Notes under the pieces: generated by a model
Databases searched by the model: none
Seen by the model: the letters and a program-made list of their open reading frames with translations, nothing else
What the model was told of the DNA's origin: nothing
Shown here: one piece after another, positions 8,861 through 23,958 of the stretch
How the letters are laid out: each line of letters starts with the position of its first letter
Position numbering within the stretch: position 1 is the first letter of the stretch
Position numbers and translations under genes: made by a program
DNA from: Candidatus Saccharimonadia bacterium
GTDB taxonomy: Bacteria > Patescibacteriota > Saccharimonadia > UBA4664
DNA length: 64,000 nucleotides
Direction of reading: 5' to 3'
NCBI GenBank assembly: GCA_035544015.1
Contig: DATKIP010000093.1
Location: forward strand, 345,454 to 409,453

Positions 8861-8939
8861 ACGGTCTGCTACAACAGCGCTGAGGCCGGGACGCCTTCGC
8901 ACCTGGGACGGCACCCAACATCGTGCCGTCCCAGGTGTC

Positions 8940-10100
8940 CTACCGCCGCGCCAGCACCCTCATTTCCGCCGGCCGCCCCAATACCTCGATCCCCGTCACT
9001 CGCCGTCGCACCACAAAACCCGGTTGCGACTTCAGTGCCCAATCCAGCACCCCCACCTCACTCGTGAGCACCACCACCAAACCGCCCGGGCGCACCACCC
9101 GTACCGCCTCGGCCAGCATCCCCCCGTACAACGCCGGCAAATCCTCAGGGCGACCAATTTGCTTTCCCCAAGGCAAATTTGTCACCAATTTATCCACCGA
9201 CGCGTCTTCCAGCGGCAGCTTGCGTGCATCCATGCGTTCAATGCGCACCGGTTTGTGGCGCGGGCCAAAATTAGCCACCGCCGCTTTTACCGCTCCTACG
9301 TCAATATCACCACCCAGCAGCAAACCATGCCGCCCCGCCAAAGCCCGCTCAAGCAATATTGTCCCCGTGCCGCACAACGGGTCCAAAAACACGTCATCGT
9401 CAGCCGGTTCGCTCAGCCGCACCATGGCTGCCGCAATCGTCGGCCGCAAGGCTGCCGCCCGCTCCACCGCCCGGCCGCCCCGAGCACGATTCACACCGCT
9501 CGTCAGACGCAAGCTCACGGTAAGGTTGCGACCAACCTGGTGCAGCCACACCTCAAACGGCGCTTCCCCTGCATTCAGCCGCCAACCCGGACGCGCCCGG
9601 CCCACCCCAGCCTCCGCCGCCCGCTGCAAATCCACCCGCCGATACCCGCGCCAAGCCGCATCATCCGCCTGCGCTACCACCCGAAACACCACTCGCGCCG
9701 GCGTCGGCCGGCCGGCCAGGTGGCCCTGCGCGCGCAGTGCCGACTCCCACACCTCAGGCCGCCCCAGCGCCGCCGTCACCGCCTTCAAATCCACCGTTTT
9801 GCCGCTCAACGGTATCGTTTCCACCACTACAAACACGTCCTCAACCAACCGTAGTCCCAGCAACCCAGCCGGATCACTCGTCTGCACCCACACCAGCTCA
9901 CTACCCCGCGCGCGGCCCGTCGCCACCGGCGCCAAACCCAAACGAGCCGCCATTTCCTCAACGACCAAAACCCTCAAACCCGGAAACATCGATACCAGAA
10001 GTTTCATACGCCTATCGTACATGAATTCACCACCAGACCCGATGCCAATTCGCAAAAAGCCTTTGCTATCGTAAAATTGTTTTGTCTCACGCCCTGCCAA
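8940..10100 (-). CDS. THUMP-domain RNA (guanine-N2) methyltransferase (RlmL/Trm14-like)
   Basis: SAM motif I LDPLCGTGTILLE and motif IV VTNLPWG. N-terminal THUMP-like region. Confidence 0.7.
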   Translation of the reverse strand: MAGRETKQFYDSKGFLRIGIGSGGEFMYDRRMKLLVSMFPGLRVLVVEEMAARLGLAPVATGRARGSELVWVQTSDPAGLLGLRLVEDVFVVVETIPLSGKTVDLKAVTAALGRPEVWESALRAQGHLAGRPTPARVVFRVVAQADDAAWRGYRRVDLQRAAEAGVGRARPGWRLNAGEAPFEVWLHQVGRNLTVSLRLTSGVNRARGGRAVERAAALRPTIAAAMVRLSEPADDDVFLDPLCGTGTILLERALAGRHGLLLGGDIDVGAVKAAVANFGPRHKPVRIERMDARKLPLEDASVDKLVTNLPWGKQIGRPEDLPALYGGMLAEAVRVVRPGGLVVVLTSEVGVLDWALKSQPGFVVRRRVTGIEVLGRPAEMRVLARR

Positions 10101-10127
10101 CCCGCCTACGCTCGAGGAAGAGGTTAC

Positions 10128-10694
10128 GTGTCAGCCATCCAGGCCGGACGCCGCACACCCTGGCGACTTATCGCCCTCGCGGCAGCCGGTGCAGCCCTCC
10201 TTGCGGTTGCCACCCATGGCACTCCCGCCAGCGCACCCCACACCGGATCCGCGGCCAAGCCAAACAGCGTCGCCACTCCCGAGATCACCGGCCACCGCCC
10301 GCCGCCGGCGCCCCAGGCCGCCACAACCACCCCACCCCGCCGCCCCGACCAACGCCTGTTTAGCGTGTCCGTCTGGTGGATCAATGCCCACGACGCAGGC
10401 GTACAGAGCCAAATAAGCGTCGGCGGCAATGCCTATAACGCCCCCATAACCCCGCACCCAGGCCCACACGGCATCGCCTACTTCACCGTCGCAGCCGCCT
10501 TTGAAGAGACGATTGATGTAATCACTAGCCGCACGTCGCGCTACGGCATCGTCGGCACCCTCAACTGCAGCATCACCGATCAGCGCGGCGAGATCATCGA
10601 CCTGCAGTGGGTCGACGACGGACGACAGGGACTAGCCCGGTGTCAAAAGCTGGTAGGCTGGGGCCCCAACCCCAATCGACGCATCAAGGGCTAG
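10128..10694 (+). CDS. small secreted Cys-pair protein, family member A
   Basis: GTG start with RBS gaggaag. Basic N-terminus, hydrophobic helix, P/T/A linker, then a domain with NCSITD...ARCQKL cysteines. Paralogy to the other members supports coding. Confidence 0.5.
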   Translation: MSAIQAGRRTPWRLIALAAAGAALLAVATHGTPASAPHTGSAAKPNSVATPEITGHRPPPAPQAATTTPPRRPDQRLFSVSVWWINAHDAGVQSQISVGGNAYNAPITPHPGPHGIAYFTVAAAFEETIDVITSRTSRYGIVGTLNCSITDQRGEIIDLQWVDDGRQGLARCQKLVGWGPNPNRRIKG

Positions 10695-10747
10695 ACCGGC
10701 ACGGCCGAGATATATTCCGCGAAACCCATCGCCTTCGCCGGAAAAAC

Positions 10748-10783
10748 CACCCAGGACGGCCCACCGCCGAGCCGTCCTGGGTG
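10748..10783 (+). terminator. GC-rich hairpin CCAGGACGGCCCACCGCCG-N-GCCGTCCTGG (terminator-like, family-conserved)
   Basis: Perfect inverted repeat directly after member A. Near-identical copies at 11498 and 19804. Confidence 0.5.
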
Positions 10784-10811
10784 TACCACCTTACAACCAA
10801 AATTATTCCAA

Positions 10812-10862
10812 TACGCTACACTAAACATTGTCTCGGCCCAAGCCGCGTTCTTGCACATCCCA
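10812..10862 (+). promoter_or_regulatory. conserved ~50-bp upstream element (TACACTAAACAttGTCTCGGCCCAAGCCGCGTTCTTGCACATCCCAAGCC), putative promoter/5'UTR of member B
   Basis: Near-identical copy at 11557..11610 upstream of member C. Contains a -10-like TACACT followed by GTCTCGG. Confidence 0.45.
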
Positions 10863-10892
10863 AGCCTCTTGTCGTCGTTAAGGAGAAGCGCA

Positions 10893-11453
10893 ATGGGTGG
10901 CACCCAAACCCCAACTCGCCGCCGAAACAGCGCCGCAGCAGTATTCGTAGTGGGCGCGTTGCTCATCGGCATCGGAGCCCTCACGGGCAACCTCACCCCT
11001 ACGAATCGGCCCAGCCCGCACGCCACACCGTCGGCCGTCATCGACGCCGAGCCAAGACCAAGCTTCCAGCCAGGGCCACGTGACCGCAGAAGCCACCTCT
11101 ACGACCTGGAGGTTTATCGAGTTAACGCTCCGACTGATATCGCCATCACCTACACGATAGGCGCAGTACTGCATCTAGTCTCACCGAGCGATCAGGCCCG
11201 TGAAACCACCGGAAACATCTGGAAACGACGCGTCACCGCCCGCAACGACGAGACGATTCTGCTAAGAGCTGTCCCGGTCACCCGCGGCGCCCACGTGCCC
11301 ACGCACATGCAGTGCAAAATCTGGCTCATCGTGGTGCGCGGAAAAGGCGAGGTACGTGGTTTTGTCGCAGAGGATCCACCACATAAAGCCACGGTAAACG
11401 CCAACCAGTCGGTGAGTTGCTCGACTCCCGTCGCAGGCCCGTACCCCGACTAA
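10893..11453 (+). CDS. small secreted Cys-pair protein, family member B
   Basis: RBS aaggaga then ATG. N-terminus MGGTQTPTRRRNSAAAVFVVGALLIGIG. Close paralog of C (YDLEVYRVNAP, RETTGNIWKRR, QCKIW...SCST). Confidence 0.65.
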   Translation: MGGTQTPTRRRNSAAAVFVVGALLIGIGALTGNLTPTNRPSPHATPSAVIDAEPRPSFQPGPRDRRSHLYDLEVYRVNAPTDIAITYTIGAVLHLVSPSDQARETTGNIWKRRVTARNDETILLRAVPVTRGAHVPTHMQCKIWLIVVRGKGEVRGFVAEDPPHKATVNANQSVSCSTPVAGPYPD

Positions 11454-11497
11454 TCACCGAGACGTCCACGCCGGCGAGGCCAAGCCCCGCCGAAACC

Positions 11498-11533
11498 ACC
11501 CAGGACGGCCCACCGCCGCGCCGTCCTGGGTGG
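11498..11533 (+). terminator. family hairpin CCAGGACGGCCCACCGCCGCGCCGTCCTGG
   Basis: Perfect inverted repeat after member B. Confidence 0.5.
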
Positions 11534-11639
11534 CCCACCCGCACCAAACCGCCGCAATACGTTACACTAAACAATGTCTCGGCCCAAGCCGCGTTCTTGC
11601 ACATCCCAAGCCATTTCTCACCACGAGGAGACCCCACCT

Positions 11640-12140
11640 ATGGGCAACACTCAGACCCCAACACGCCGAAAATTTGGCGGACTACTGCTCACAGCCGGCC
11701 TGTTGCTTGGCGCCGTGGTAATCACCAGCAACCACCCCATCGGTCAGCCTGAACCATCCGCCACCCCGACCGCCGTCATTGATGCCGCCCCCGGCCCGGA
11801 CGACAACCAGGTATACACCTACGACCTCGAGGTTTTGCGCGTTCACGCACCGTCTGGAATTTCCATTTCCTACTCCATCGGCGCCATACCGTACGTGGTC
11901 CCGGCGAAAGCCCAGAAGCGCGAAACCACCGGAAACCTCTGGAAACGACGGATAACGGTCATCAACAACGAACTCGTCGTCTTAACTGCCGCGCCCAATG
12001 CGCGGGGCGCCCATATCCCTACACACTTGCAGTGCCGAATCAAAGCCGTTATGAGCGCCCATGCCACCTTCCCTCTCTCCGAGGATCCGCCAGGTAGAGC
12101 TACCACAAACGCCAGCGAAACGGTGAGTTGTTCGATCTAG
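11640..12140 (+). CDS. small secreted Cys-pair protein, family member C
   Basis: RBS aggag then ATG. N-terminus MGNTQTPTRRKFGGLLLTAGLLLGAVV. Paralog of B (YDLEVLRVHAP, RETTGNLWKRR, QCRIK...SCSI). Confidence 0.65.
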   Translation: MGNTQTPTRRKFGGLLLTAGLLLGAVVITSNHPIGQPEPSATPTAVIDAAPGPDDNQVYTYDLEVLRVHAPSGISISYSIGAIPYVVPAKAQKRETTGNLWKRRITVINNELVVLTAAPNARGAHIPTHLQCRIKAVMSAHATFPLSEDPPGRATTNASETVSCSI

Positions 12141-12161
12141 CAATCGCGACGGCGCCGAGAC

Positions 12162-12195
12162 ACCGCCGGGGATGGCGCAACGACGCCCCATCCCC
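12162..12195 (+). terminator. hairpin CCGGGGATGG-loop-CCATCCCCGG after member C
   Basis: 10-bp perfect stem. Confidence 0.45.
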
Positions 12196-12224
12196 GGCGC
12201 CGAACCCGAACATAAATCCAACAA

Positions 12225-12290
12225 AATAAAGACCCGAGACTCATTCGCGCAGTGGGTGGTCACCGCACGAAAAAGCTCGGGTCTTTATTA
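12225..12290. repeat. long inverted repeat AATAAAGACCCGAG...CTCGGGTCTTTATT (14-bp perfect arms, ~37-nt loop)
   Basis: Seen in sequence. Borders a ~270-bp low-GC island (12290..12560) upstream of dprA. Confidence 0.5.
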
Positions 12291-12503
12291 CACCCTTCAA
12301 CCTCACCTCGGGGGCGTTTTATGCGAAACGCGTATAGCGTAACGGGTGTGAAGGGACTAATCCGCCTGCAGTGAATAGCTAAAGGAGGGTGCATTTAGAT
12401 ATTCTTACAGGCGAATTAGTGGTATGTTGAGGTGGTTCTTGCCTACGCATTGCAGGCATAACTAAGATGCTAACACACTTTACGGATTCTGTCAACAATA
12501 ATT

Positions 12504-13352
12504 ATGCAAATCTCTAACATTTCTCACAACTCAAACTCGTTTCCAGATATACTCAGGCAAATTACCGAACCGCCCAGAAGCATAAACGTTTTAGGAACTT
12601 TGCCCAAAGACTCCATGGTAGCGGTCGTCGGCACGCGCCGGCCCACCGCTTACGGCGAACGCGTCACCTACCAAATAGCAGGGGAGTTGGCCAAGGCCGG
12701 CGCCGTCATCGTGAGCGGCCTAGCGATCGGCGTGGATTCCATCGCTCACCGCGCCGCCCTCGATGCCGGCGGCCGCACCGTGGCCGTACTAGCTCACGGT
12801 CTCGACCGCATCTACCCGCCCCGCCACCGCGGCCTGGCCAAAGAGATTCTCGCCTCCGGCGGTGCGCTGGTTTCTGAGTACGACATTGGCACCCCGGCCC
12901 ACAAACACCACTTCGTGGAGCGCAACCGCCTCATCGCCGGCCTGTGCGCCGCCACCATCGTGACCGAAGCCGCCACCAAAAGCGGCTCGCTCATCACCGC
13001 CCACCGCGCCGCCAAATACAACCGGCTCGTGATGGCCGTGCCCGGCAACATCACCTCCGTCTACTCAGCCGGCCCCAACAATCTGATCCGCACCAATATT
13101 GCCACCCCCATCACTTCCACGGCCGATGCCATCGTAGCGCTGGGCTTCCACGCCCGCGAGGCTGTGCCCGTGTCGGCCCAAAGCCCCGACGAAGCCAAAA
13201 TCCTCGAGCTCCTCGAAGGCGGCGCCAGCAATAGCGAAGACCTCATCGCCGGCGGCAATTTCAGCGCCGCCCAATTTGCCAACATCATCAGCCTCATGGA
13301 AATCACCGGCAAGGTCCGCAACCTCGGCGCCGGACAATGGGTGGTGCGGTAA
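12504..13352 (+). CDS. dprA: DNA processing protein A (DNA-uptake/recombination mediator)
   Basis: DprA Rossmann-like core (VAVVGTRRPTAYGERVT...SGLAIGVDSIAHRAAL...GGRTVAVLAHGLD). Confidence 0.85.
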   Translation: MQISNISHNSNSFPDILRQITEPPRSINVLGTLPKDSMVAVVGTRRPTAYGERVTYQIAGELAKAGAVIVSGLAIGVDSIAHRAALDAGGRTVAVLAHGLDRIYPPRHRGLAKEILASGGALVSEYDIGTPAHKHHFVERNRLIAGLCAATIVTEAATKSGSLITAHRAAKYNRLVMAVPGNITSVYSAGPNNLIRTNIATPITSTADAIVALGFHAREAVPVSAQSPDEAKILELLEGGASNSEDLIAGGNFSAAQFANIISLMEITGKVRNLGAGQWVVR

Positions 13353-13427
13353 GCATTTGGCTGTCCGCTCCCGCATGATTTACACTGGTACCCGTCTCGT
13401 TGTTTCCCGTCCAAGAGAGCAGGATGC

Positions 13428-13988
13428 ATGGCCACCAAGACCACCAGCACGCCCAGCCGAGCGAGAGGGCGGGTCCGCGCCGTCCTACTGTCTTTGATCC
13501 TCCTCGCTGGCGTCATCACGCTGGGTTCGCAAGTCACCATTAGCAAGAATCCCGCCCTGCCCAGCGAGAGCCCGCAGCCGGCCCAAACGACCTGTGTTCC
13601 GCCGCCGGGAGCCAAGACCTGCAAACCCGATCCCAAGCTCTATGTCGTCCTGGTGAAATGGAGCGGCCTCGACGGTAAACCCGAGGGGCCGGACATCAAG
13701 GTCGCGCCCGAACCACTCGTAGCCGACTCCGCCCCGGTCATCGACGCAGGACGCTGGGTAGCCATCACGACGGCCAATCCCACTGCCGCCAGCAAATTTG
13801 CGGTCACGGTCGGAGTGAGCGCGAAGAAGACTCCGCGAAAGATCGAGCAGGCCCAGACCAGCTGCCGTGTTTTTCCATTCACCGGAACCCAAATCACACT
13901 CCGCGCAGCCGAGGCCAGCATCGCCGGAAGTGACCCGATCACCACTGGCACAGGCAGTGATGTAACTCGCTGCCTGGTACCCCGGTAA
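13428..13988 (+). CDS. small secreted four-Cys protein, family member D (D/E/F subfamily)
   Basis: N-terminus basic plus LLSLILLAGVITL. Cys pair TTCVPPPGAKTCKP plus C-terminal SCRVF...RCLVPR. Shares LYVVLVKWSG / VAPEPL / WVAITTANP blocks with E and F. Confidence 0.6.
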   Translation: MATKTTSTPSRARGRVRAVLLSLILLAGVITLGSQVTISKNPALPSESPQPAQTTCVPPPGAKTCKPDPKLYVVLVKWSGLDGKPEGPDIKVAPEPLVADSAPVIDAGRWVAITTANPTAASKFAVTVGVSAKKTPRKIEQAQTSCRVFPFTGTQITLRAAEASIAGSDPITTGTGSDVTRCLVPR

Positions 13989-14011
13989 TCCGCAGGTACG
14001 AGACGCTCTGC

Positions 14012-14042
14012 CCGGAGGAACGGCCACGAACCGTTCCTCCGG
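14012..14042 (+). terminator. family hairpin CCGGAGGAACGGCCACGAACCGTTCCTCCGG
   Basis: Perfect inverted repeat after D, followed by the conserved GGCACCACC. Confidence 0.5.
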
Positions 14043-14155
14043 GGCACCACCAACTATTCGCTAGCCATAAACCAATCCTTGGCACTACAATAATTTCGTC
14101 TCGTGTCGCTCAGGAAAGCTCGTTCACATCCACGACCCAAGGGAGCTCCCACTCC

Positions 14156-14752
14156 ATGCCCAACGAGCAGCAAACACGCGGGATCAGCGCCGCAGGAGCT
14201 GCTGTCTTCGTCATCGGCCTCATCGCCATAGTAGGCCTAGCCGGTAACAACGATTCCGACAGCCGCCCGTCATCCTGTGGCCAGAAGCCAATAACCCATT
14301 CCGGAATTCCCGGAGCCCGCTTCACGAAGTTCGACTGCCTCCCGGGAGCTACCGCGCTCCCGGCTGTCACCCGGGCCCAGCGCGACCAAGAACTATACCT
14401 GGTCCTAGCCGGCTGGAAGGGCACCTCCAACGCCACCATCGGAGTCGTCCCTCCGCCCCTCGCCTCCACGGACTCGCTCTTCCAGGTCAGTGGCAATGAG
14501 GGCCTATGGTTTGGCCTGACCACCGCCAACACCAACCCTGCCATCAAGAATAGTAAGGGGAAGCCGGTGAAAGTCAGGGTGGTCATCCAAGCCAACCTCA
14601 GGGTAGGCAGCCGTTTGACCTGCGCCATCTATCGCATAACGAACTTCGACACACCCGGAAATGTTGCCAGTCAACACCGGCTGGAGCACAAAGAGTTCCA
14701 CCCCGACCGGCCTCTACGCAACCCGACCTTGGAATGCAGCATTCCCCTCTAG
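14156..14752 (+). CDS. small secreted four-Cys protein, family member E
   Basis: RBS aagggag. LYLVLAGWKG, VVPPPL, WFGLTTANT blocks. Cysteines SSCG...FDCLPG and TCAIYRITN...ECSIPL. Confidence 0.6.
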   Translation: MPNEQQTRGISAAGAAVFVIGLIAIVGLAGNNDSDSRPSSCGQKPITHSGIPGARFTKFDCLPGATALPAVTRAQRDQELYLVLAGWKGTSNATIGVVPPPLASTDSLFQVSGNEGLWFGLTTANTNPAIKNSKGKPVKVRVVIQANLRVGSRLTCAIYRITNFDTPGNVASQHRLEHKEFHPDRPLRNPTLECSIPL

Positions 14753-14779
14753 CACCAGCGGCACGAGACACCCGCACCA

Positions 14780-14814
14780 CCCGAGAACGGCGCCCTCCAG
14801 CGTCGTTCTCGGGG
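14780..14814 (+). terminator. family hairpin CCCGAGAACGGCGCC...CGTCGTTCTCGGGG
   Basis: Inverted repeat after E. 3' flank conserved with the F copy. Confidence 0.5.
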
Positions 14815-14860
14815 CACCACCCACCTAGGCGCTCCTTCACCCCAATCGGAAGGATCCATC

Positions 14861-15502
14861 GTGTCGAGAAGCCGAACAGCAGCGAAAGCACGCCTTCTTG
14901 TGATGGCGCTGATCGGAGCCAGTCTGGTCATCGGCACCACCCAAGTTGGCCGGATGCTTCCCGGCAGCAATGCGGACGCCTGCCCCGTCGCCACCCCCAA
15001 TCCCGCCGACAGCGGCGTGGTGGTAGTCGGAGCCAACGACTGCATCCCCCGGATGCCGCCAGTCCCCAAATCCATCAGAGACCGAGAGCTCTTCGTGGTC
15101 GTGGCTGGCTGGAGCAATCTCTTCGGGGTTCCCTACGAGACCGGCGTCAGCATCAATGTATCGCCGCCACCGCTCGGAATGACCGAACGCACCATTCGCC
15201 TGCCGCAACCTACAGGACACTGGTACGGCGTCACCATCGGCGCCCAACCCGGCGACATACCAGATTTCAAAGACAACAACTACCGGGTCCTCATGGGAGT
15301 GGGGGCTTCAGACGCCACCCACAAACACCACCCCAACTCCGGCCTGGCCTGCGGCATCTATCGCCTCACCACACCCGATGCACCCGAAAACAGCATCGTG
15401 CGAGCAAATTTTCTCAGCGGAGAAATCTCCACTCCCGCAGAAGAGGCCCCCCCCGATTATTCATTGCCGGTATCCCAACCGCAAGTAACGCCAGCGGCCT
15501 GA
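14861..15502 (+). CDS. small secreted four-Cys protein, family member F
   Basis: RBS ggaagga. LFVVVAGWSN, VSPPPL, WYGVTIGAQ blocks. Cysteines ADACP...NDCIP and ACGIYRLTT. Confidence 0.6.
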   Translation: MSRSRTAAKARLLVMALIGASLVIGTTQVGRMLPGSNADACPVATPNPADSGVVVVGANDCIPRMPPVPKSIRDRELFVVVAGWSNLFGVPYETGVSINVSPPPLGMTERTIRLPQPTGHWYGVTIGAQPGDIPDFKDNNYRVLMGVGASDATHKHHPNSGLACGIYRLTTPDAPENSIVRANFLSGEISTPAEEAPPDYSLPVSQPQVTPAA

Positions 15503-15521
15503 GCACGAGACGCCCGCACCA

Positions 15522-15558
15522 CCCGGGAACGGCGCCACACAGCGGTGCCGTTCCCGGG
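15522..15558 (+). terminator. family hairpin CCCGGGAACGGCGCC...GGTGCCGTTCCCGGG
   Basis: Inverted repeat after F. Confidence 0.5.
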
Positions 15559-15602
15559 GCACCACCGCTTGAACCCGCGCCCATACCTGCTACAATATCA
15601 AA

Positions 15603-16559
15603 ATGAAGTTTTGGCAACAGCTACCGCAGCCGTTCTTTGTGCTAGCCCCCATGGACGACGTCACCGACGTGGTTTTTCGGCAGCTCATAGCCGAAATCGC
15701 GCCACCAGACGTCTTCATGACCGAATTCGTCTCGGTGGACGGCCTCCAATCAGCCGGCCGCACCGTCACGCTCGAACGCCTGCGCATCGCCCCCGGCAGC
15801 GCCAGCAACCTCGTGGCCCAAATCTGGGGCAACGACCCCGAGCGCTTCTACCGTTCCGCCCAAGACATCGCCGCGCTGGGCTTCGCCGGCATCGACATCA
15901 ACATGGGCTGCCCCGAGAAGGGGATTGTAGCCCGCGGCTGCGGTGGCGGCCTCATCGGCCACCCCGACGCCGCGGCCGACATCATCGCCGCCACCAAGGC
16001 CGGCGCGCCCCATCTGCCCGTCAGCGTCAAGACTCGCCTCGGCCTCGGCCAACCCATCACCGAAGACTGGGCTGGCTTCCTGCTCGGCCAAGACCTTGCC
16101 GCCCTCACCATCCACGGCCGGACCGTGCGCGAAATGAGCAAAGTCCCGGCGCACTGGGACGAAATCGCCAAAGTAGTGCGCCTACGCAACCAACTGGCCG
16201 TGCCCACCAAGATCATCGGCAACGGCGACATCGAAAGCCGCGCCCACGGCCTGCAATTGGCCTCAGACACCGGCGTCGACGGCCTCATGATCGGCCGTGG
16301 CATCTTCCACGACCCCTTCATCTTCGACCCCGCCCAGGCCACCGCTGACCCCCAAAAACGCCTCGCCATCCTCCTCCGCCACGTCGAGCTCTACGAGCAG
16401 TGGGGGAGTACCAAGTCGTTCCAAACCCTGAAGAAATTCTTCAAAATCTATGCCAACTCCTGGCCCGGCGCCGCCGAACTGCGCGCCGAACTCATGGAGA
16501 CTTCCATGCCAGCGCAGACACGAGGCATTATTGCCGCACATTTAGGAAAAATCCAGTAG
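15603..16559 (+). CDS. dus: tRNA-dihydrouridine synthase
   Basis: Dus/TIM-barrel motifs FVLAPMDDVTDVVFR and GIDINMGCPEK. Confidence 0.85.
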   Translation: MKFWQQLPQPFFVLAPMDDVTDVVFRQLIAEIAPPDVFMTEFVSVDGLQSAGRTVTLERLRIAPGSASNLVAQIWGNDPERFYRSAQDIAALGFAGIDINMGCPEKGIVARGCGGGLIGHPDAAADIIAATKAGAPHLPVSVKTRLGLGQPITEDWAGFLLGQDLAALTIHGRTVREMSKVPAHWDEIAKVVRLRNQLAVPTKIIGNGDIESRAHGLQLASDTGVDGLMIGRGIFHDPFIFDPAQATADPQKRLAILLRHVELYEQWGSTKSFQTLKKFFKIYANSWPGAAELRAELMETSMPAQTRGIIAAHLGKIQ

Positions 16560-16580
16560 AATAATTCACGTCTCGTACAG
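16548..16580 (+). promoter_or_regulatory. putative promoter of member G (TAGAATAAT -10-like box followed by CACGTCTCGTACA); overlaps the last codons of dus
   Basis: Motif shared with the upstream regions of H, E and N. Confidence 0.4.
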
Positions 16581-16628
16581 CCTGAGACGTCCTTCCCATC
16601 CCAACGGTTGCCCCAGGAGGCAAACAAA

Positions 16629-17213
16629 ATGAGCCGCACCGCCCAGCGCGGAGTGATTGCCCGGATCGGTGGCCTCTTGTTCACAGTCGTGGCGCTCTTA
16701 GCCGGCACTGTAGCGATCATGAGCTCGACCGGCACCAAGACCTGCAAGTCCGCACCGGCCCCCGCTCCAGCCGTCCAGTTGGCAGCCCAAACCGCCGCGG
16801 CCCCCGAGAGCACCCGGTACGTCTTCTTGGCCCAATGGACTCGCTTCCAGCCCAACGAAGTCAACATTCTCTACACCGACTACCTGGAAGATGGCCACCC
16901 GCGCAAGCAGATCGTCCTCGACACTGACAAGGGCCCCAGCAGCTGGAAGACCGTGATCACCGCGCCAAACGGCAGCAAGCCCACGCTCGAGATCACGCCG
17001 CCCCCCTGGGCCTGCAACGATGTCCATGGGCTCACCAAAGGCGCCTCTGTGAGCTGTGTCGTTTACCTGGTCAGCACCAGCAAGCCGGAAGACAGCATGA
17101 TCCCGTCCAACGTCCAGGCCCGTGCCACCAACACGACCGGACAAAGCGCAATTTGCAAGGACTTCACCGCCGGGAAGCGGAAGCACGCCTCAGAACTCGA
17201 TCCCGAGCACTAG
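16629..17213 (+). CDS. small secreted Cys-containing protein, family member G
   Basis: RBS aggagg, spacer 8 nt, ATG. MSRTAQRGVIARIGGLLFTVVALLAG...TGTKTCKSAP. C-terminal WACND...SCVVYLVS...ICKDF. Confidence 0.6.
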   Translation: MSRTAQRGVIARIGGLLFTVVALLAGTVAIMSSTGTKTCKSAPAPAPAVQLAAQTAAAPESTRYVFLAQWTRFQPNEVNILYTDYLEDGHPRKQIVLDTDKGPSSWKTVITAPNGSKPTLEITPPPWACNDVHGLTKGASVSCVVYLVSTSKPEDSMIPSNVQARATNTTGQSAICKDFTAGKRKHASELDPEH

Positions 17214-17261
17214 CCGGGCACCGCGTACATCCGAGACTGTCCCGCCGAGGCACAGCACCCC

Positions 17262-17300
17262 GGCACGGGGGCCGCAATGGCGCAAAACAGCGCCATCGCG
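17262..17300 (+). terminator. hairpin GGCCGCAATGGCGC-loop-GCGCCATCGCGGCC after member G
   Basis: Near-perfect 14-bp inverted repeat. Sibling copy at 18508. Confidence 0.5.
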
Positions 17301-17407
17301 GCCCCCCGCACCATCGTCCCAACCCCAGCACCCGTCCGTCGCTCTAGCAGCCCTTTCACAACCACGGCCACGCAAAGCCCCATCAGCCACCCAGCGAGCG
17401 TCAGATC

Positions 17408-17725
17408 GTGCTCCGATTGGCCTGGCGGCAAGCCCCCGACGGCGTCACCATCCGCTACCGGATCGGCCACCAGCGCGAAATCACCATAACCGACGGCCGG
17501 CACGAACACGAAGGGCTTGAGTTTCCCGTCCCCGCCGAAATCGGCGACGAGATCAAGCTTTCTATCACGCCGGTCTTCGAAAACGAATTCACCCCCACGA
17601 ACGTGCGCTGCTTCATCTACCAGATCAAGTTCGGCCGACGCATCGAGGGGCACGTGGATCCGCCACACGGCTATACCCCCGACGCGCTTGAATCTGCCCA
17701 CTGCAAGTGGGTAGTCACGCCCTAG
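17408..17725 (+). pseudogene. N-terminally truncated remnant of the small Cys-pair family (domain only, no anchor or signal)
   Basis: Carries the family C-terminal hallmarks (RCFIYQIKF...HCKWVVTP). The upstream region is occupied by the G hairpin. A P/T/A linker-like stretch is present in another frame (17277 ORF), implying frameshift or deletion decay. Confidence 0.35.
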
Positions 17726-17823
17726 CCGGTTCGGGGACGGCGGCATCACCGTCGTCCCCGAACCCCCAAATCTATTGAAATCCGCGCCGTCCCGAGGCCA
17801 AACCTCAAAAACCCTTTTAAGCA

Positions 17824-17858
17824 AAAATCCAGTAGAATAATTCACGTCTCGTACAACG
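17824..17858 (+). promoter_or_regulatory. putative promoter of member H (TAGAATAAT...CACGTCTCGTACA), part of a ~130-bp duplicated block
   Basis: Near-identical to 16548..16580 including AAAAATCCAGTAG, which is the terminal KIQ-stop of dus at the G locus. Confidence 0.4.
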
Positions 17859-17903
17859 TGAGGCTTCTTTCCATCCCAACTTTTGCCCCAGGAGGCAGAC
17901 AAC

Positions 17904-18461
17904 ATGACTCGCACCGCCCGGCGCGGAGTGATTGCTCGGATCGGTGGCCCCGTGGTCACGGTCTCAATACTAGCGATCGGAGCCATAGTGATCGCCAACT
18001 CAACCGGCACCAAGACCTGCAAGTCCGCACCGGGCCCCGCTACTCCGGCCACCACCAAGCCCGCATCGGCCTCCAGCGACTGCTCCACCCCACCCGGCTC
18101 CCAGACCACCGCTCTTCGGCATGTCCACACGTACTACGGCACCTCCACAAAAACCGGCTACGCTATGGGCGCCCAGTACCAAGTCGGGCCGATTAGCGGC
18201 AATATACTCCCGTTCTCTCGCGGCAAGCGCGAAGCCAGCTGGACCGGCCTACTCACCGCCTTCGAAGGCGACCCACTCACAATCGACATCACCGGGGTCG
18301 GCGACGCTAACCCGACAGCCAAAGTCGCGTGCGCCTTCTACCGCATCACCGACCCGGCCAATCTCAGGGCCAACGCCGTACCTGCCAACCTCGTCGGAGT
18401 ACCCCAGTCCGGCACGGGCCCAAAGGGCCACGCCCACTGCGAAATAATCTCCGGCGAGTAG
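17904..18461 (+). CDS. small secreted four-Cys protein, family member H
   Basis: RBS ggagg then ATG. MTRTARRGVIARIGGPVVTV...TGTKTCKSAP (N-terminus near-identical to G). CST...ACAFYRITD...HCEIISGE. Confidence 0.6.
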   Translation: MTRTARRGVIARIGGPVVTVSILAIGAIVIANSTGTKTCKSAPGPATPATTKPASASSDCSTPPGSQTTALRHVHTYYGTSTKTGYAMGAQYQVGPISGNILPFSRGKREASWTGLLTAFEGDPLTIDITGVGDANPTAKVACAFYRITDPANLRANAVPANLVGVPQSGTGPKGHAHCEIISGE

Positions 18462-18507
18462 TCCCTCACGCCACCCGAGACACCCCGCCGAGGCACAACG
18501 CCCCGGC

Positions 18508-18545
18508 GCAGAGGCCGCAATGGCGCAGCGTTGCGCCATTGCGGC
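18508..18545 (+). terminator. hairpin GGCCGCAATGGCGCAGCGTTGCGCCATTGCGGCC after member H
   Basis: Perfect 15-bp palindrome. Confidence 0.55.
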
Positions 18546-18652
18546 CCACCCGCACCCTGCATTGATATTAAAAATCCGACATTATGCCGTAAAATTAAGT
18601 CGTCTCGCGTCCAGCCCCGCAGCACCCCACAATCCACCACCGGAGGACTTCT

Positions 18653-19135
18653 GTGCTCACTCGTACCCCCACCAGGCCTCGATCAGGCAAGAGATCCAAG
18701 GCCGTGTGGGCGATTATTGCCATAGGGCTCCTGATCCTCGGACTCCAAGCCCTCTCCGCACCCAGCAATCGATCCGCACCCCACAGCGGCGCCACCCCTA
18801 CCACTACCCAAACCGCCGAAGTCATCGAACTCGGCGGCAACTGGAACAGCGTAGATGGTGACGTCAAGATCACCATCACCACCAACGGCCATGCGATCCC
18901 CTTGCCAGAAACCTTCCCCGGCAACCTCTACGACTGGAACCAACCACACGTGGTCGCTCCAGGCGACGAGGTGGTACTCAACATCAGGCCGGTCAACCCG
19001 CAAGACAAGCACTATACGATGTATTGCAAAATCTTCGGTCCGAACGGAATCCCGGTCGACGAACAGCCCGGCATCCACGACGACCATATCAACGACGGGG
19101 TCACCTGCTACTACCCGTTGCGGCCCAAGCCCTAG
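18653..19135 (+). CDS. small secreted Cys-pair protein, family member I
   Basis: RBS ggagga then GTG. Basic N-terminus plus AVWAIIAIGLLILGL. YCKIFGPNG...TCYYPL. Confidence 0.55.
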   Translation: MLTRTPTRPRSGKRSKAVWAIIAIGLLILGLQALSAPSNRSAPHSGATPTTTQTAEVIELGGNWNSVDGDVKITITTNGHAIPLPETFPGNLYDWNQPHVVAPGDEVVLNIRPVNPQDKHYTMYCKIFGPNGIPVDEQPGIHDDHINDGVTCYYPLRPKP

Positions 19136-19162
19136 CTGCCTTCACGAGGCGTGAGACGCCGG

Positions 19163-19197
19163 CCCCAGGATGGCACACCGAAGTGTCATCTTGGGGC
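19163..19197 (+). terminator. hairpin CCCCAGGATGG-loop-TCATCTTGGGG after member I (G-U containing stem as RNA)
   Basis: Seen in sequence. Confidence 0.35.
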
Positions 19198-19243
19198 ACG
19201 CCAGCATGAAACCCTCCACCCTTGATGCCCGAGGAGAACATCC

Positions 19244-19774
19244 GTGCGTACCACCGCTCAGCGCGCCCCCAGTAGGCTGCGCCAAACGCTGCTTGTCATC
19301 CTTGCCGGCGCGCTAGCGATCGGCATCGGAACCAACTTGCCAACCAGCCAATCCGCCACACCCCCAGCCGCACGACCCACCCGGCACCTCTCGGTCGTGC
19401 CGCAGCCCACAGTCAGCACCGAGCCCAGTGCCATCACGAGCGCACCGGTCGCCACGGGGCCCGAAGAGCGATGGTTCCATCTGCAAGGCCACTGGGACCT
19501 GCCGGCCAAGCCCGGCAAACCCCACGTTCGGGTTGTCATTACCGTCATCGTCTTGGGCTCCGCTCCCGACCCAACCCCCTCCGAGGACCCCTTCGGTAAC
19601 TTCGATAGTTGGGTATCCACCCCGGGCCCCGGCGTAATGCTTCGCATTGCCCCCAAAACGCCCGAGCCCCGCACCCCAAAGATGAGCTGCAGCATCCATG
19701 ACGAACATGACCTGCCCATCGGCATCGTCTACCCGGTGGATCGCACGGGCGGAGCGTTGTGCGTGGCCCGGTAA
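19244..19774 (+). CDS. small secreted Cys-pair protein, family member J
   Basis: RBS gaggag then GTG. RLRQTLLVILAGALAIGIG. Long P/T/A linker. SCSIHDEHD...LCVAR. Confidence 0.55.
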   Translation: MRTTAQRAPSRLRQTLLVILAGALAIGIGTNLPTSQSATPPAARPTRHLSVVPQPTVSTEPSAITSAPVATGPEERWFHLQGHWDLPAKPGKPHVRVVITVIVLGSAPDPTPSEDPFGNFDSWVSTPGPGVMLRIAPKTPEPRTPKMSCSIHDEHDLPIGIVYPVDRTGGALCVAR

Positions 19775-19803
19775 ATCGAGCTGAGCTCCACGAGGCACCA
19801 TAG

Positions 19804-19835
19804 CCCAGGACGGCCCACCGCCGGGCCGTCCTGGG
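19804..19835 (+). terminator. family hairpin CCAGGACGGCCCACCGCCGGGCCGTCCTGG
   Basis: Third copy of the A/B-type hairpin. Confidence 0.5.
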
Positions 19836-19897
19836 CTCTTGCCCAACCCGCTCCACGCTTGCATCCTCCACCTCCACCAGATACGGTAGGGAATACC

Positions 19898-20053
19898 ATG
19901 AAGAAAGCTGTCGTACTCATAATCGGCGTTCTGGTATATCTTTGGTTTCTCCAAGCAGCCCAAGACGTGGCCGCCAGCCAGCTCACCGAGCTCCAATACT
20001 TATACACAAGCTCAGGCGCTCAAGCCGCCGCCATTTCAAATCCCAACAGATAG
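19898..20053 (+). CDS. 51-aa small hydrophobic/secreted peptide (MKKAVVLIIGVLVYLWFLQAAQDVAAS...)
   Basis: RBS gggaa then ATG. Signal- or TM-like N-terminus. Codon usage is markedly lower GC3 than neighbouring genes. Followed by an AT-rich region carrying TGGTATAAT. Confidence 0.3.
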   Translation: MKKAVVLIIGVLVYLWFLQAAQDVAASQLTELQYLYTSSGAQAAAISNPNR

Positions 20054-20107
20054 CTCATCTACCCACCACTATTTCGTCAAAACACGCAGGGTAAATTTAT
20101 TATGCTC

Positions 20108-20120
20108 GTGGTATAATCAG
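20108..20120 (+). promoter_or_regulatory. extended -10 promoter TGGTATAAT upstream of member K (followed by CGGCTCGTAC)
   Basis: Consensus TGnTATAAT seen in sequence. Confidence 0.4.
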
Positions 20121-20273
20121 CCACTTTCGGCTCGTACAAATCTAGCGTCATCCCCAAGTTAATGGCCCTGCAACCACAATTATTGGCGTGTCAAAACCAC
20201 AGAGTTCCGATACAATGGTTCCCGGCTTGCGTGGCAAGCCCCGTCCCATACCCACCGCAGGAGGGATTGTGCA

Positions 20274-20771
20274 GTGGTTTTGACCGGGCAACGTCCATCA
20301 ACCCGACGACGAGGCATGCGCAGCGTAGTCACGACCGTGCTCATCGTTGCAGCCGTTCTGTGGGGACTGCCTAGGCTCAACCCCGACACGCAGACCTGCT
20401 CCGCCGTGGCACAAACCAGCTCCCAACCTCAAGGCGACTGCTCCACCGGACCCAAAATCCGATTCCGGCTCTCGTGGTCCGAAGCACCCGAAGGCCTGGT
20501 CGTCGAGTACTACGCCGACGGCCACGGCCTGGGCCCAACGCACCCCGACACTGCATACGACGAATGGGACGTCACGCTGCCGGGAACCGTCGGGTTCATT
20601 AGCCTCAGCGCCCCCAGAGGCTCCTACATCGGCTTCTTGAAGTGCCGGCTTTCAAACCCCGACACCAACGAGCAATACGACGCCGCCGAGTACTTCCCCG
20701 TGGATGGACCCCTACAGCAGCTGCCGAGCGGAAAATGGGGCATTGAATGCCACACGCCGGGCATAGCCTAA
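20274..20771 (+). CDS. small secreted four-Cys protein, family member K
   Basis: RBS ggaggg then GTG. VVTTVLIVAAVLWGL. TQTCS...GDCSTG and KCRLSNPDT...ECHTPG. Confidence 0.55.
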   Translation: MVLTGQRPSTRRRGMRSVVTTVLIVAAVLWGLPRLNPDTQTCSAVAQTSSQPQGDCSTGPKIRFRLSWSEAPEGLVVEYYADGHGLGPTHPDTAYDEWDVTLPGTVGFISLSAPRGSYIGFLKCRLSNPDTNEQYDAAEYFPVDGPLQQLPSGKWGIECHTPGIA

Positions 20772-20901
20772 CACCGGGTGAACCTCCATTCGCCTGATCA
20801 CTCCGGGATGGCCCAATGTCGCGCTATCCCGGAAGGTCCTAGAATTATCATTCTCATCTGCGCTAAAATCATGTGGTCCGCTGTTCGCCCGTCGAAAGGT
20901 A

Positions 20902-21399
20902 GTGTTCGTGACAACCACCCAGCGGCACCGGCCAAAAGCCCGGGGTAGCGGCAGGGTACTCCTGGCGATAGCCGGCCTCATCGCTGCCGTTATTGTCATC
21001 CCGTTCCCAGCCAAAACCCACCCCAACCCCGTCACTACGCCATCGGTAACCCCAGCCGGTCCCCGGGCAGTCGAATTCAAATTCGACGCCACCCTCACCG
21101 GACTGGCCCATACCGAGATCGAAACCGAGGTTGGTGGAGCCGCACAGCCGCATCCCAATATCATCACTCCCACCTGGGAGACCACTCGGCCAGGCACCGA
21201 GTACCAGTCGGCCGAGATGACGATCACGCCCCGGGAAACCACCAACCGGTCGCGCGTAACCGGCGTCAGAACCATCTGCCAAATCTTCGTGCGCATCCTC
21301 CCGAACGGCGCGTTCGAAGGCCAGGCCTACGTGCCCGGGTTTAGTGTGAATGAACAGATCACGTGCCGAGCACATCCACCCTACGCGCTAACCGGGTAG
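20902..21399 (+). CDS. small secreted Cys-pair protein, family member L
   Basis: GTG start (20902 or 20908), RBS gaaagg. VLLAIAGLIAAVIVI. ICQIFVRIL...TCRAHPP. Only 6 bp upstream of M (operon). Confidence 0.55.
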   Translation: MFVTTTQRHRPKARGSGRVLLAIAGLIAAVIVIPFPAKTHPNPVTTPSVTPAGPRAVEFKFDATLTGLAHTEIETEVGGAAQPHPNIITPTWETTRPGTEYQSAEMTITPRETTNRSRVTGVRTICQIFVRILPNGAFEGQAYVPGFSVNEQITCRAHPPYALTG

Positions 21400-21405
21400 G
21401 GCATC

Positions 21406-21933
21406 ATGCTCCGCACCCGCAGTCGCATCGCACCCGCAGTCCTCGCGCTCGCTGCTCTTGCTAGCTTTGCTTGGTTGGCCGCCGTGCCACATCCGCCGGC
21501 CAACCATGATGCCACCATCGTCATCTACTACCCAACCCCAGCCCAGGCCGACGCCGTACCGGCACCCCGACCGCCGACCACGATCGACGACGATCACGTC
21601 CGCTACTGGGCGGTGATCGAATGGGAGCGTTCTGCCGGCGTATCAATCGCCTACCTGATCGGACCAGTAGCGCCAGCCCCCACTACCGACAAACGGCCGG
21701 ATGGGGTCGAAAAAATTCTCATTACGGCACCTCGCGACAGCCTCATTCAGGTACATGTAGTGCCTCACCGGCTGCCTCGTGGAAACAGCTACGCCAGCCA
21801 ATGCGCCGTGTATCTCGTCACCCAGCTCGCACCGCTGGAAGACAACGAAAAGATACCGAACATGCGGGCCCACGACGTCACCACCCCCGGCAAAACCGGC
21901 ATCACCTGCACGCTCACAGCCACCGGCGTGTAG
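21406..21933 (+). CDS. small secreted Cys-pair protein, family member M
   Basis: ATG start. APAVLALAALASFAWLAAV. QCAVYLVT...TCTLTATGV. Confidence 0.55.
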   Translation: MLRTRSRIAPAVLALAALASFAWLAAVPHPPANHDATIVIYYPTPAQADAVPAPRPPTTIDDDHVRYWAVIEWERSAGVSIAYLIGPVAPAPTTDKRPDGVEKILITAPRDSLIQVHVVPHRLPRGNSYASQCAVYLVTQLAPLEDNEKIPNMRAHDVTTPGKTGITCTLTATGV

Positions 21934-21951
21934 CAATTGCCCGCCTCACAC

Positions 21952-21985
21952 CCCCAAGACGGCCCACTGTCGTGCCGTCTTGGGG
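21952..21985 (+). terminator. family hairpin CCCCAAGACGGCCCACTGTCGTGCCGTCTTGGGG
   Basis: Perfect inverted repeat. Sibling at 22552. Confidence 0.5.
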
Positions 21986-22069
21986 CCCTCCATCGCACTA
22001 ATACCACCACATGCGTTACAATAATCGGCGTCTCGTAAACCCAACCCGACCCGCAAAGGATGGCGCAAC

Positions 22070-22531
22070 GTGATCACCGGAACGAGAAGGAGGGGCCGGC
22101 TCCTCCTCGTCGTCCTAGCAGTCATCGGCCTCCTAGCCGGTGTAGCCGAGGGAATGGGGGCCTTCAGCCAGCAACGCACCCTCGTGCTCGTTGCCCAATG
22201 GACCAATACCCCAGGGGGCGTAGAGATCGATGCCGCAGCCAATGGCATTAAGCTGGACCCGACAGATCCCAGCTACACCACCGGTACCCCCCTCGACGCC
22301 GCTACAGGCTTCCGCAGGATCACCGTAACGGCCGCTTTCGCCCACATCATTGTCGGTAACGTCATACCCGCAATACGAATCGATAGCAGGGTCCGCTGCG
22401 CCGTCTTCGACCCCCAGATCAAAGCGCCACTTTTTTCAGATACTGTCACCGGACGAACCGGTGCCCAGGCTACCTGCTACTACAACGAGACGGTACGGCC
22501 AACACCGGCACCACCCACACCGACGAGATAA
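22070..22531 (+). CDS. small secreted Cys-pair protein, family member N
   Basis: GTG start. RRRGRLLLVVLAVIGLLAGVAEG. RCAVFDPQI...TCYYNETV. Upstream TACAATAAT...CGTCTCGTAA motif at 22013..22036. Confidence 0.55.
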   Translation: MITGTRRRGRLLLVVLAVIGLLAGVAEGMGAFSQQRTLVLVAQWTNTPGGVEIDAAANGIKLDPTDPSYTTGTPLDAATGFRRITVTAAFAHIIVGNVIPAIRIDSRVRCAVFDPQIKAPLFSDTVTGRTGAQATCYYNETVRPTPAPPTPTR

Positions 22532-22551
22532 CTCGCCGGCCACAACCACCC

Positions 22552-22583
22552 CCAAGACGGCCCACTGCGGCGCCGTCTTGGGC
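22552..22583 (+). terminator. family hairpin CCCAAGACGGCCCACTGCGGCGCCGTCTTGGG
   Basis: Perfect inverted repeat after N. Confidence 0.5.
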
Positions 22584-22656
22584 TCACCCCGCTCGCATAC
22601 AAAAAGACCCCGCCGCACCGAAGCGCTTGGGGGTCTTTTTGATCAGCCGGTAGCAA

Positions 22657-23265
22657 TTACCAGCTGTGGCGGGCGAGCCAGTGGCTGTAGGCGCTAGCCC
22701 AGGAGCCGAACCGGCCTACTGCGTAGGCGTTAGCCCAGCGCAGCTGCGTGACCGGGTTGGTCAGGTAGTCCGAACCAAACGGTGCCATTTTACTAGCAGG
22801 CATGGCCTGGCCGAGGCCGTACGCACCCGAGCCAGCGTAGTTGCTCTTGGTTACACCCCAACCACTCTCGTGGTCGATGATGTAGTCGACATAGCCAAAA
22901 TCTCGTTCGGCGATGCCGGCGGCTCGCATCCAGTCGGCGTGACTGCCAGCAATCTGGATCGTCACCACCGGGCGAGCTACTACCCGCTTGGCCGCAGCCT
23001 TGGCTTTCTCGGCCGCCAATTTGGCAGCCGCCTCAGCCTGGGCCTGAGCCGCGTGCAGGGGAGCGAGCACTTCGGCATCGTAGTCGGGCTTTTTAGGGCC
23101 GACTATCTCAACCGCCGAAGCAGTGTTGGTATTAAGTTTCACCTCGTAGACTCCAACGGCGCTGTCCGAAGACGTTGCCGTGGCGGCCACATCACTTAAG
23201 AAAGGAATGTGCACCTGAGAAGCTAGCAGCACCAGAGATGCCGCGAACTGCAAGATGTTACGCAT
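22657..23265 (-). CDS. secreted transglycosylase-like / lysozyme-like cell-wall hydrolase domain protein
   Basis: Signal peptide MRNILQFAASLVLLASQVHI. Ala/Lys-rich helical linker. C-terminal DYIIDHESGWGVTKSNYAGSGAYGLGQAMP...LRWANAYAVGRFGSWASAYSHW, resembling the transglycosylase-like (Rpf/SLT-type) fold. Confidence 0.5.
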   Translation of the reverse strand: MRNILQFAASLVLLASQVHIPFLSDVAATATSSDSAVGVYEVKLNTNTASAVEIVGPKKPDYDAEVLAPLHAAQAQAEAAAKLAAEKAKAAAKRVVARPVVTIQIAGSHADWMRAAGIAERDFGYVDYIIDHESGWGVTKSNYAGSGAYGLGQAMPASKMAPFGSDYLTNPVTQLRWANAYAVGRFGSWASAYSHWLARHSW

Positions 23266-23315
23266 GGGAGGGTCACCGAAGCAACCTCTTAGCCCTTTCG
23301 TTAATGGGTGTCACA

Positions 23316-23345
23316 AAAAATGACCCCGCAAAAGGGTCGTTTTGA
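23316..23345. terminator. orphan bidirectional hairpin-plus-T-tract (GACCCCGCAAAAGGGTC-GTTTT)
   Basis: Stem gaccc/gggtc flanked by A and T runs. No convergent gene ends here on either strand. Confidence 0.35.
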
Positions 23346-23595
23346 GTGAACGCGACGTAGTATATACCAATTACCTATTTTTGTCAATAGCATAAGCGGG
23401 TTAATCGGATAACTCCCGCCCCAACGAACCCGCGCCCTCGAGCATTCGAAGTCTAAAACTTAGACAAAATCTGCTCATCTACGCTCAAACTATCCCTCAA
23501 ATTCTAAACTTTAGACCACCCTCTACCCACATCCACCCGAAGGGGGAGTCAAAAATAACCCAAAGCAACCCGACAAAAAATGTTACAATATCCTT

Positions 23596-23958
23596 ATGCT
23601 TCTTGTGGCCTTTGTGCAGTGGTGGTACGGGCCCGGCTGGCGCGACGCCGCCGGCCGTTTGTTGGCGCGTATTCACGATACCTATCTGTTGTTTTCGGTT
23701 CCAAGCCTGCTCACTACCATGTTTGCCCCGTGGCGGCGCATTATTTCGTCACCCGGCCGCAGCATCGGCGACCGTGCCCGGGCCACACTCGACAACCTCA
23801 TTTCGCGGGTCGTCGGCTTCATCGTGCGACTCATCGCCCTTATCGCCGCCGGCGTCATCATCACGCTCTACCTCGTACTGGGCGGAATCCTCCTGCTCGT
23901 GTGGCCGGTGGCGCCGCTGCTGGGCCCCATCCTGATCGTAGGAGGATTAATCTTTTGA
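23596..23958 (+). CDS. small integral membrane protein (120 aa, Trp-rich, 3 predicted TM segments)
   Basis: MLLVAFVQWWYGPGW...LIALIAAGVIITLYLVLGGILLLVWPVAPLLGPILIVGGLIF. Its stop overlaps the TTG start of the downstream Clp-like gene. Confidence 0.5.
   Translation: MLLVAFVQWWYGPGWRDAAGRLLARIHDTYLLFSVPSLLTTMFAPWRRIISSPGRSIGDRARATLDNLISRVVGFIVRLIALIAAGVIITLYLVLGGILLLVWPVAPLLGPILIVGGLIF

Follow-up and report, generated by a model that had tools for sequence, protein, structure and literature searches.

In the 64,000-nucleotide stretch analysed here (the window), part of a metagenome-assembled genome of a Saccharimonadia bacterium, two members of a 16-member orphan protein family, G and H, lie downstream of dus, the gene for tRNA-dihydrouridine synthase. 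We propose that G and H are probably a chimeric pair that arose by recombination between non-allelic copies, and that the 13-mer which they share with the end of dus is the promoter-proximal edge of a common module. The repeat that links the two genes is a mosaic in which segments of high and low identity alternate, and it is longer and more structured than the block of about 130 bp that the first-pass annotation had placed upstream of and into both genes. That block is real and far above chance (127 nt, 89% identity, blastn E 6e-34), its coordinates having been one base off. The parts of the two copies are listed below, dS and dN denoting synonymous and non-synonymous divergence.

16629..17213, + strand: coding sequence of member G, 194 aa, NCBI protein VMT30_08380 (open reading frame (ORF), family alignment, AlphaFold model)
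17904..18461, + strand: coding sequence of member H, 185 aa, NCBI protein VMT30_08390, architecture as G (ORF, family alignment, AlphaFold model)
16541..16673, + strand: 5' module of G, 86-89% identical to 17817-17948, with one 1-nt indel
16557-16562, + strand: predicted -10 box TAGAAT of G (family promoter/leader alignment)
16570-16575, + strand: GTCTCG of G (family promoter/leader alignment)
16568-16590, + strand: 5' hairpin of G (fold)
16615-16620, + strand: ribosome-binding site AGGAGG of G
16629, + strand: start codon ATG of G
17817..17948, + strand: 5' module of H, with the same elements as that of G
17833-17838, + strand: predicted -10 box TAGAAT of H
17846-17851, + strand: GTCTCG of H
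17846-17864, + strand: 5' hairpin of H, weaker than that of G (fold)
17890-17895, + strand: AGGAGG of H
17904, + strand: start codon ATG of H
16674..16727, + strand: diverged membrane-helix patch of G (partner 17949-18002), ~50% nucleotide identity, dS 0.84, dN 0.78
16728..16766, + strand: STGTKTCKSAP patch of G (partner 18003-18041), 97% identity including a 31-nt exact run
16767..17230, + strand: variable core of G, comprising linker, outer domain, stop codon and 17 nt (partner 18042-18474), unalignable as DNA
17231..17320, + strand: 3' module of G, comprising CCGAGAC, a GC-rich hairpin at ~17267-17306 and then CCGCACC, 74% identical to 18475-18565 with a core at 82-88%
18475..18565, + strand: 3' module of H, comprising CCGAGAC and then a hairpin at ~18513-18546 (alignment to the 3' module of G)

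Each 5' module runs from a pre -10 A-tract through the -10 box, GTCTCG, the 5' hairpin, CATCCCAA, AGGAGG and the ATG to codons 1-15. Its non-coding part is identical between G and H at 76 of 88 positions, a divergence of ~14%; the hairpin is intact in G (8 bp), and in H it has 6 bp, two of them G-U. In the conserved coding patches (codons 1-15 and 33-46) dS is ~0.13 and dN ~0.05, with three differences at ~25 synonymous sites, and the membrane helix that lies between them has the far higher values given above. The coding sequences had been described as diverging almost completely after TGTKTCKSAP. This holds for the ~460 bp of linker and outer domain, whose lengths differ and whose sliding identity of 5-55% per 20-nt window, mostly 20-40%, is at the random level, but the second shared block at the 3' end had been missed; its hairpins fold at -52 kcal/mol (z -4.2) in G and -49 kcal/mol (z -5.7) in H. 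The spacing of the copies is nearly constant (5' end, 1275-1276 bp; 3' end, 1243 bp), and the sequence search found no further copies of any G or H segment within the window.

The relationships of the two genes also differ from part to part. G consists of an arginine-rich N-terminus, a membrane helix, the STGTKTCKSAP segment, a proline/alanine linker and a beta-sandwich outer domain with conserved cysteines. This outer domain is nearest to that of member M (blastp 5e-5, Smith-Waterman z 9.3) and more distant from that of H (E 0.1-0.3, z 5.3), the latter being about equally near to F, G and F2 by z-score. In place of the collinear, evenly diverged copies expected of a simple segmental or tandem duplication, the pair thus has sharply bordered tracts of high identity inside diverged paralogs, and its segments have discordant nearest relatives: G and H are each other's closest in the 5' and 3' modules, whereas in the outer domain G is closest to M and H is ambiguous between F, G and F2. 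The outer domains of the pair are no more alike than those of any two family members.

We infer from this pattern that either the regulatory, signal and terminator modules would have passed by patchy interlocus gene conversion from one old paralog to another, or a unit would have been duplicated and its outer domain then swapped. Both routes would leave two young shared modules, a 5' one (through codons 1-15 and 33-46) and a 3' one (CCGAGAC and the terminator hairpin), around membrane-helix cores and outer domains that retain an old, family-level divergence. The 13-mer would then be a transcription-signal sequence, and dus would merely happen to read K-I-Q-stop from a promoter borne by the cassette.

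This proposal draws on a promoter/leader module that is shared across the family. TAnAnT, 6-7 nt, GTCTCG and then CATCCCAA and a ribosome-binding site stand in register in C, D, E, F, G, H, I and N. The combination TAnAnT-N6-7-GTCTCG has eight sites in the window, all eight of them upstream of a family gene, as against ~7 in 2 Mb of other loci. Seven other family promoters, none of them adjoining the end of dus, have -10 boxes that line up with the TAGAAT of G, and the H-type promoter sequence reads AAAAATCCAGTAGAAT. F, G/H and I have, at most 30 nt before the -10 box, an A-rich stretch that ends in AATCC; its chance probability of ~0.005 is post hoc, the motif having been chosen after it was seen. 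Just before the TAG in the shared tract, AAAAATCC resembles what precedes the -10 box in F and I, and AAAAATCCAG may be part of the promoter. Ahead of the -10 box, C, D, E, I and N have a CAnATGCGT-like motif that is missing from G and H.

The features at the end of dus are these:

15603..16559, + strand: dus (tRNA-dihydrouridine synthase), 318 aa (ORF; Pfam PF01207, E 5e-49)
16547..16559, + strand: first copy of AAAAATCCAGTAG, exact match, encoding K-I-Q-stop of dus
17823..17835, + strand: second copy of AAAAATCCAGTAG, exact match, upstream of H with dus not nearby

The 13-mer that the first-pass annotation had reported was recovered on re-inspection, with exactly these two occurrences in the window. 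The dus ORF ends in GKIQ-TAG, and the -10 box of G opens with this stop codon (16557-16559). The tract shared by G and H begins 10-16 nt upstream of the -10 box, which at G is within the last 3-6 codons of dus, and only ~19 nt of dus fall inside it, three of these in the -10 box. Upstream of 16541 and 17817, local and anchored alignments of dus with the region before H give no similarity above shuffled controls (p > 0.39), and the similarity therefore does not reach into conserved dus coding sequence. Orthologues of Dus in other Saccharimonadia are 65-80% identical and 314-340 aa long, a range that includes the 318 aa of the window's Dus; their C-terminal tails are variable, with unrelated ends 3-17 residues past a conserved R-x-I/V-I/L/V motif. 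Since the tails of relatives end in unrelated sequence of variable length, the Dus tail gives no polarity. Low G+C at third codon positions (GC3) in the last dus codons was considered as a sign of a promoter-derived tail and rejected, the tails of relatives having equally low and variable GC3. It was also observed that dus and G share one reading frame (16557-16631), in which the TAG within the -10 box is the sole stop that separates the two ORFs. At the other end of the gene, a TACAAT box lies only 7 nt 5' of the dus ATG (window 15569-15605), which suggests a leaderless or near-leaderless dus transcript.

The first-pass annotation had concluded that the H cassette was copied from the G locus together with the 3' end of dus. 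According to the recombination form of this explanation, the G unit and the last dus codons were copied to make H, the 10-16 nt before the -10 box of H are a fossil of dus, and the outer domain was replaced later. It is consistent with the overlap of the shared 5' block with the last 3-6 dus codons, a part of the claim that stands. It is also consistent with the absence from G and H of the pre -10 motif of C, D, E, I and N, and with the 5' hairpin, whose weaker form in H is what would be expected of a decaying copy. In L001, the locus of the closest relative, the Dus tail moreover contains AAAATCC within TCC AAA ATC CCG (K-I-P) at roughly the same place, offset by two codons. However, this match covers 9/15 nt after the two-codon shift, and the truly orthologous tails of L001 and L058 share only ~28% of their nucleotides; we treat it as weak evidence for these reasons, and it may be a chance match. 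Against a dus relic, in addition, the TAG belongs to a family -10 box, AATCC is found upstream of the -10 box in F and I as well, away from any dus end, and no more of dus is recognisable upstream of H. The assignment of the tract to dus did not follow from the overlap and was probably mistaken, given the family -10 box and a similarity that ends after ~19 nt. We consider the copying of dus codons into H a possible but doubtful origin of the pair. As to the pre -10 stretch by itself, we lean towards a sequence borne by the cassette rather than one that was originally dus-coding, a direction that we infer; a true derivation from dus followed by copying to H would be a less likely, still plausible, alternative, and a small remainder of probability goes to neither.

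The other explanations are far less likely. The near-constant spacing of the copies and the fast-evolving, surface-exposed look of the family could suggest that G was simply duplicated in tandem and that the membrane helix and outer domain then diverged at an accelerated rate by point mutation, under diversifying selection. Recombination is favoured over such a course because the flanks are only ~13% diverged at silent and non-coding sites, the middle ~460 bp differ in length and are no more identical than random sequence, the silent sites of the membrane-helix patch are old too, and the outer domain of G is nearer to M than to H. The divergence of the outer domain, for which the first-pass annotation had left both courses open, is thus compatible with recombination-mediated replacement, whereas its acceleration finds no support in a dS of ~0.13 or in ~14% non-coding change; we regard plain duplication as very unlikely. 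To a similar degree it is improbable that G and H are old paralogs without recent exchange, whose promoter, leader, signal and terminator pieces were held by purifying selection: the conserved pieces do coincide with the -10 box, leader hairpin, ribosome-binding site, N-terminal region and terminator, but similarly constrained family members share short motifs only, not 86-97% identity over 130 nt, and the silent sites of the G and H patches are nearly unchanged. Least likely of all, and barely credible, is an assembly artefact, a tandem join of two strain variants of a single locus. Conserved flanks round a variable core do resemble allelic variants, and the genome is derived from a metagenome; yet the sequences upstream of the copies are unrelated (dus in one case, the terminator of member X in the other), a unique 500 bp segment with X lies between them, and the copies differ by ~12% with exact runs of at most 33 nt. 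Two independent Logan contigs of run SRR8863102 match window 11583-16576 and 18004-24790 at 100% identity and break off precisely within the 33-nt and 31-nt exact repeats, which is how a real repeat would halt a k-mer assembler. A tandem join of strains is therefore unlikely.

Several points weigh against the chimeric pair that we favour. There are two copies and no outgroup genome, and gene conversion and duplication with an outer-domain swap are inseparable on that basis, as is the polarity of the event. Public data hold no recent donor for either outer domain. The outer domain of H is as similar to that of G (z 5.3-5.9) as to that of F, and membership of different subfamilies is therefore firm for G only. 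The codons TCC AAA ATC CCG of L001 could imply that AAAATCC is native to dus, and the want of a CAnATGCGT-like motif in G and H would fit a foreign, dus-derived pre -10 stretch. Finally, promoter function of the TAGAAT modules is predicted from their consensus alone.

The ends of the family genes have a further regularity. In C, D, E, F, G, H, I and N, GTCTCG follows the -10 box at 6-8 nt (promoter sites 10817-22035; chance ~1e-19), and (C/T)GAGAC, its inverse complement, stands 4-19 nt past the stop codon in C, D, E, F, F2, G, H and I (11458-19158; chance ~1e-11), where it is followed by a strong hairpin and usually then by a CACC-like run. The bases that flank the two cores partly co-vary: GTCTCGG goes with CCGAGAC in C and D, CGTCTCGT with ACGAGACG in E, GTCTCGTG with CACGAGAC in F, and CGTCTCGCG with CGTGAGACG in I. 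The two motifs could pair the ends of the mRNA, or they could be inverted repeats that bound an intergenic terminator-promoter unit. It can be speculated, with little confidence, that the array is a modular cassette system, each gene bounded by GTCTCG just past its promoter and by (C/T)GAGAC just past its stop codon, in which the motifs either pair the mRNA ends in a shared control of stability or translation or act as junctions at which outer-domain cassettes move between constant promoter/signal and terminator modules. The leaders and terminators match no Rfam family.

Interlocus (ectopic) gene conversion and mosaic paralogs are known from bacterial surface families such as babA/babB of Helicobacter pylori and the vlp genes of Mycoplasma, in which variable outer regions follow a conserved block of promoter and signal. 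G and H resemble these in being paralogs with a near-identical 5' regulatory and signal segment, a divergent exposed domain and relationships that are discordant by gene part. In contrast to them, G and H share a 3' segment as well, every family copy bears its own promoter-like boxes and terminator, a single chimeric pair was found, and the host is a soil Saccharimonadia known from a metagenome-assembled genome rather than a pathogen. Nor does the window hold signs of a programmed switch: it has neither homopolymer or simple-repeat tracts nor long inverted repeats at the flanks of promoters, and no invertase or archive of silent cassettes was seen in it, so that phase or antigenic variation is not indicated there. 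A promoter embedded in the 3' end of the upstream gene is a general bacterial organisation, to which the overlap of the putative -10 box of G with the dus stop, and of the pre -10 stretch with the last dus codons, would conform. The difference is that here the same promoter-bearing sequence recurs once without the upstream gene, which invites its reading as a fossil.

The family as a whole comprises 16 ORFs at 8372-22531 that have one architecture in the family alignment, namely an arginine-rich N-terminus, a membrane helix, a proline-rich linker and a domain of ~110 aa with one invariant and one nearly invariant, C-terminal cysteine. A profile of this domain, searched against 1.84 billion representative proteins, returned the window's own 16 and a few repeat proteins that are noise. 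G and H are each singletons among 5.8 billion protein clusters, exact-protein look-ups of the two gave no record, and 161 related loci contain no family member; the family is private to this metagenome-assembled genome. In the AlphaFold models of G and H the outer domain is a beta-sandwich, with a predicted local distance difference test score (pLDDT) of ~90 for residues 60-130 of G and of 70-89 for H. The best compact match in the PDB by Foldseek is the periplasmic domain of MmpS5 (8em5_A), with target-normalised TM-scores of 0.69 for G and 0.59 for H. Mycobacterial MmpS proteins (PF05423), of which this MmpS5 is one, are likewise small, with a single N-terminal membrane helix and an extracytoplasmic beta-sandwich of ~100 aa. 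However, none of the 16 family members matches PF05423 at E up to 10 (hmmscan), and a profile search of PDB sequences gave no MmpS match for the family. MmpS5 is co-encoded with MmpL5 (PMC12122801), whereas the large ORFs of the window include no MmpL/RND partner, and the sixteen paralogs stand alone with promoters that appear to be their own instead of being operon partners. To judge from the models, the relation to MmpS would be a resemblance of fold only and not family membership.

Between the 3' module of G and the 5' module of H lies a further, incomplete member of the family:

17408..17725, + strand: member X, outer domain only, 105 aa (ORF, family alignment)

X is annotated in public data as a 105-aa protein. 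No promoter box, ribosome-binding site, membrane helix or linker was found for it, and an in-frame stop occurs at ~17345, just past the 3' module of G. X is probably a 5'-truncated relic directly after that module, and it may mark a recombination breakpoint. The idea that a G-X pair was tandemly duplicated to give the pair H-I was rejected, X and I having no specific similarity. H (18076-18095) and K (20434-20453) have a patch of 18/20 nt in common, GCGACTGCTCCACC..ACCC, which encodes DCST and sits at the same spot of the linker, right in front of the outer domain's first strand; a similar DC motif is present in F and F2. The patch could be one more short tract in common or a motif of a subfamily.

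Similarity of Dus places the window in the Saccharimonadia (Patescibacteria); NCBI assigns the G and H proteins to a “Candidatus Saccharimonadia bacterium”. The window has ~60% G+C, nearly all of its genes are on the + strand, and strand asymmetry is very strong across it (GC skew ~-0.2, AT skew ~+0.15). The array has pth, a methyltransferase gene, dprA and dus as neighbours, and the order of these housekeeping genes is conserved in L001, L002, L003 and L058. The comparison of orthologous loci shows that L058, L002 and L003 are without the G-J block: their dus is followed almost directly by a small ORF and a conserved element (window 19848-20118), and then by a terminator and a convergent gene (window 22591 onward). 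K-N (20.12-22.59 kb) and, at the end of dus, G-J (16.56-19.85 kb) are therefore insertions specific to the lineage. The remaining family members occupy the gaps pth/methyltransferase, methyltransferase/dprA and dprA/dus, and the family thereby fills five consecutive intergenic gaps of a housekeeping block that relatives conserve. The small ORF (MKKAVVLIIGVLVYLWFLQ...) and a promoter-like element, TGGTATAAT (19898-20118, 22591-22680), are conserved in L058, L002 and L003, where a bidirectional terminator comes directly after the element; in the window the K-N cassettes lie between the two. A search for a sister genome by Dus gave nothing closer than 80% identity among genome contigs and 75% among metagenome contigs, an exact 21-mer from the 5' block is absent from metagenome contigs, and the only contigs that look-ups with Dus and member I brought up are identical to the window. 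The large ORFs of the window encode a ClpB-like ATPase, a PAS/GAF histidine kinase and a VirD4-like ATPase. The last, a VirD4/TraG-like coupling protein of 947 aa (TrwB_AAD_bind, T4SS-DNA_transf) at 59360-62203, would fit, as expected, the type IV-like machinery of Saccharibacteria.

The event that we propose is of a kind that belongs to ordinary gene-family evolution, and the orphan family with its shared 5' and 3' motifs is the more interesting by-product. As first described, the finding would record no more than a single small duplication. The case also cautions that a promoter sequence which overlaps a stop codon can be misread as the relic of a coding sequence. If they are a chimeric pair, G and H show that, in a reduced Saccharibacteria genome, recombination shuffles outer domains relative to regulatory and signal modules. 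Should the array indeed be a cassette system, they would be its first exchange of outer domains to be caught, in a symbiont that needs surface variation. The orphan family is, in this respect, a candidate for variation at the surface or in host interaction in an episymbiont lineage.

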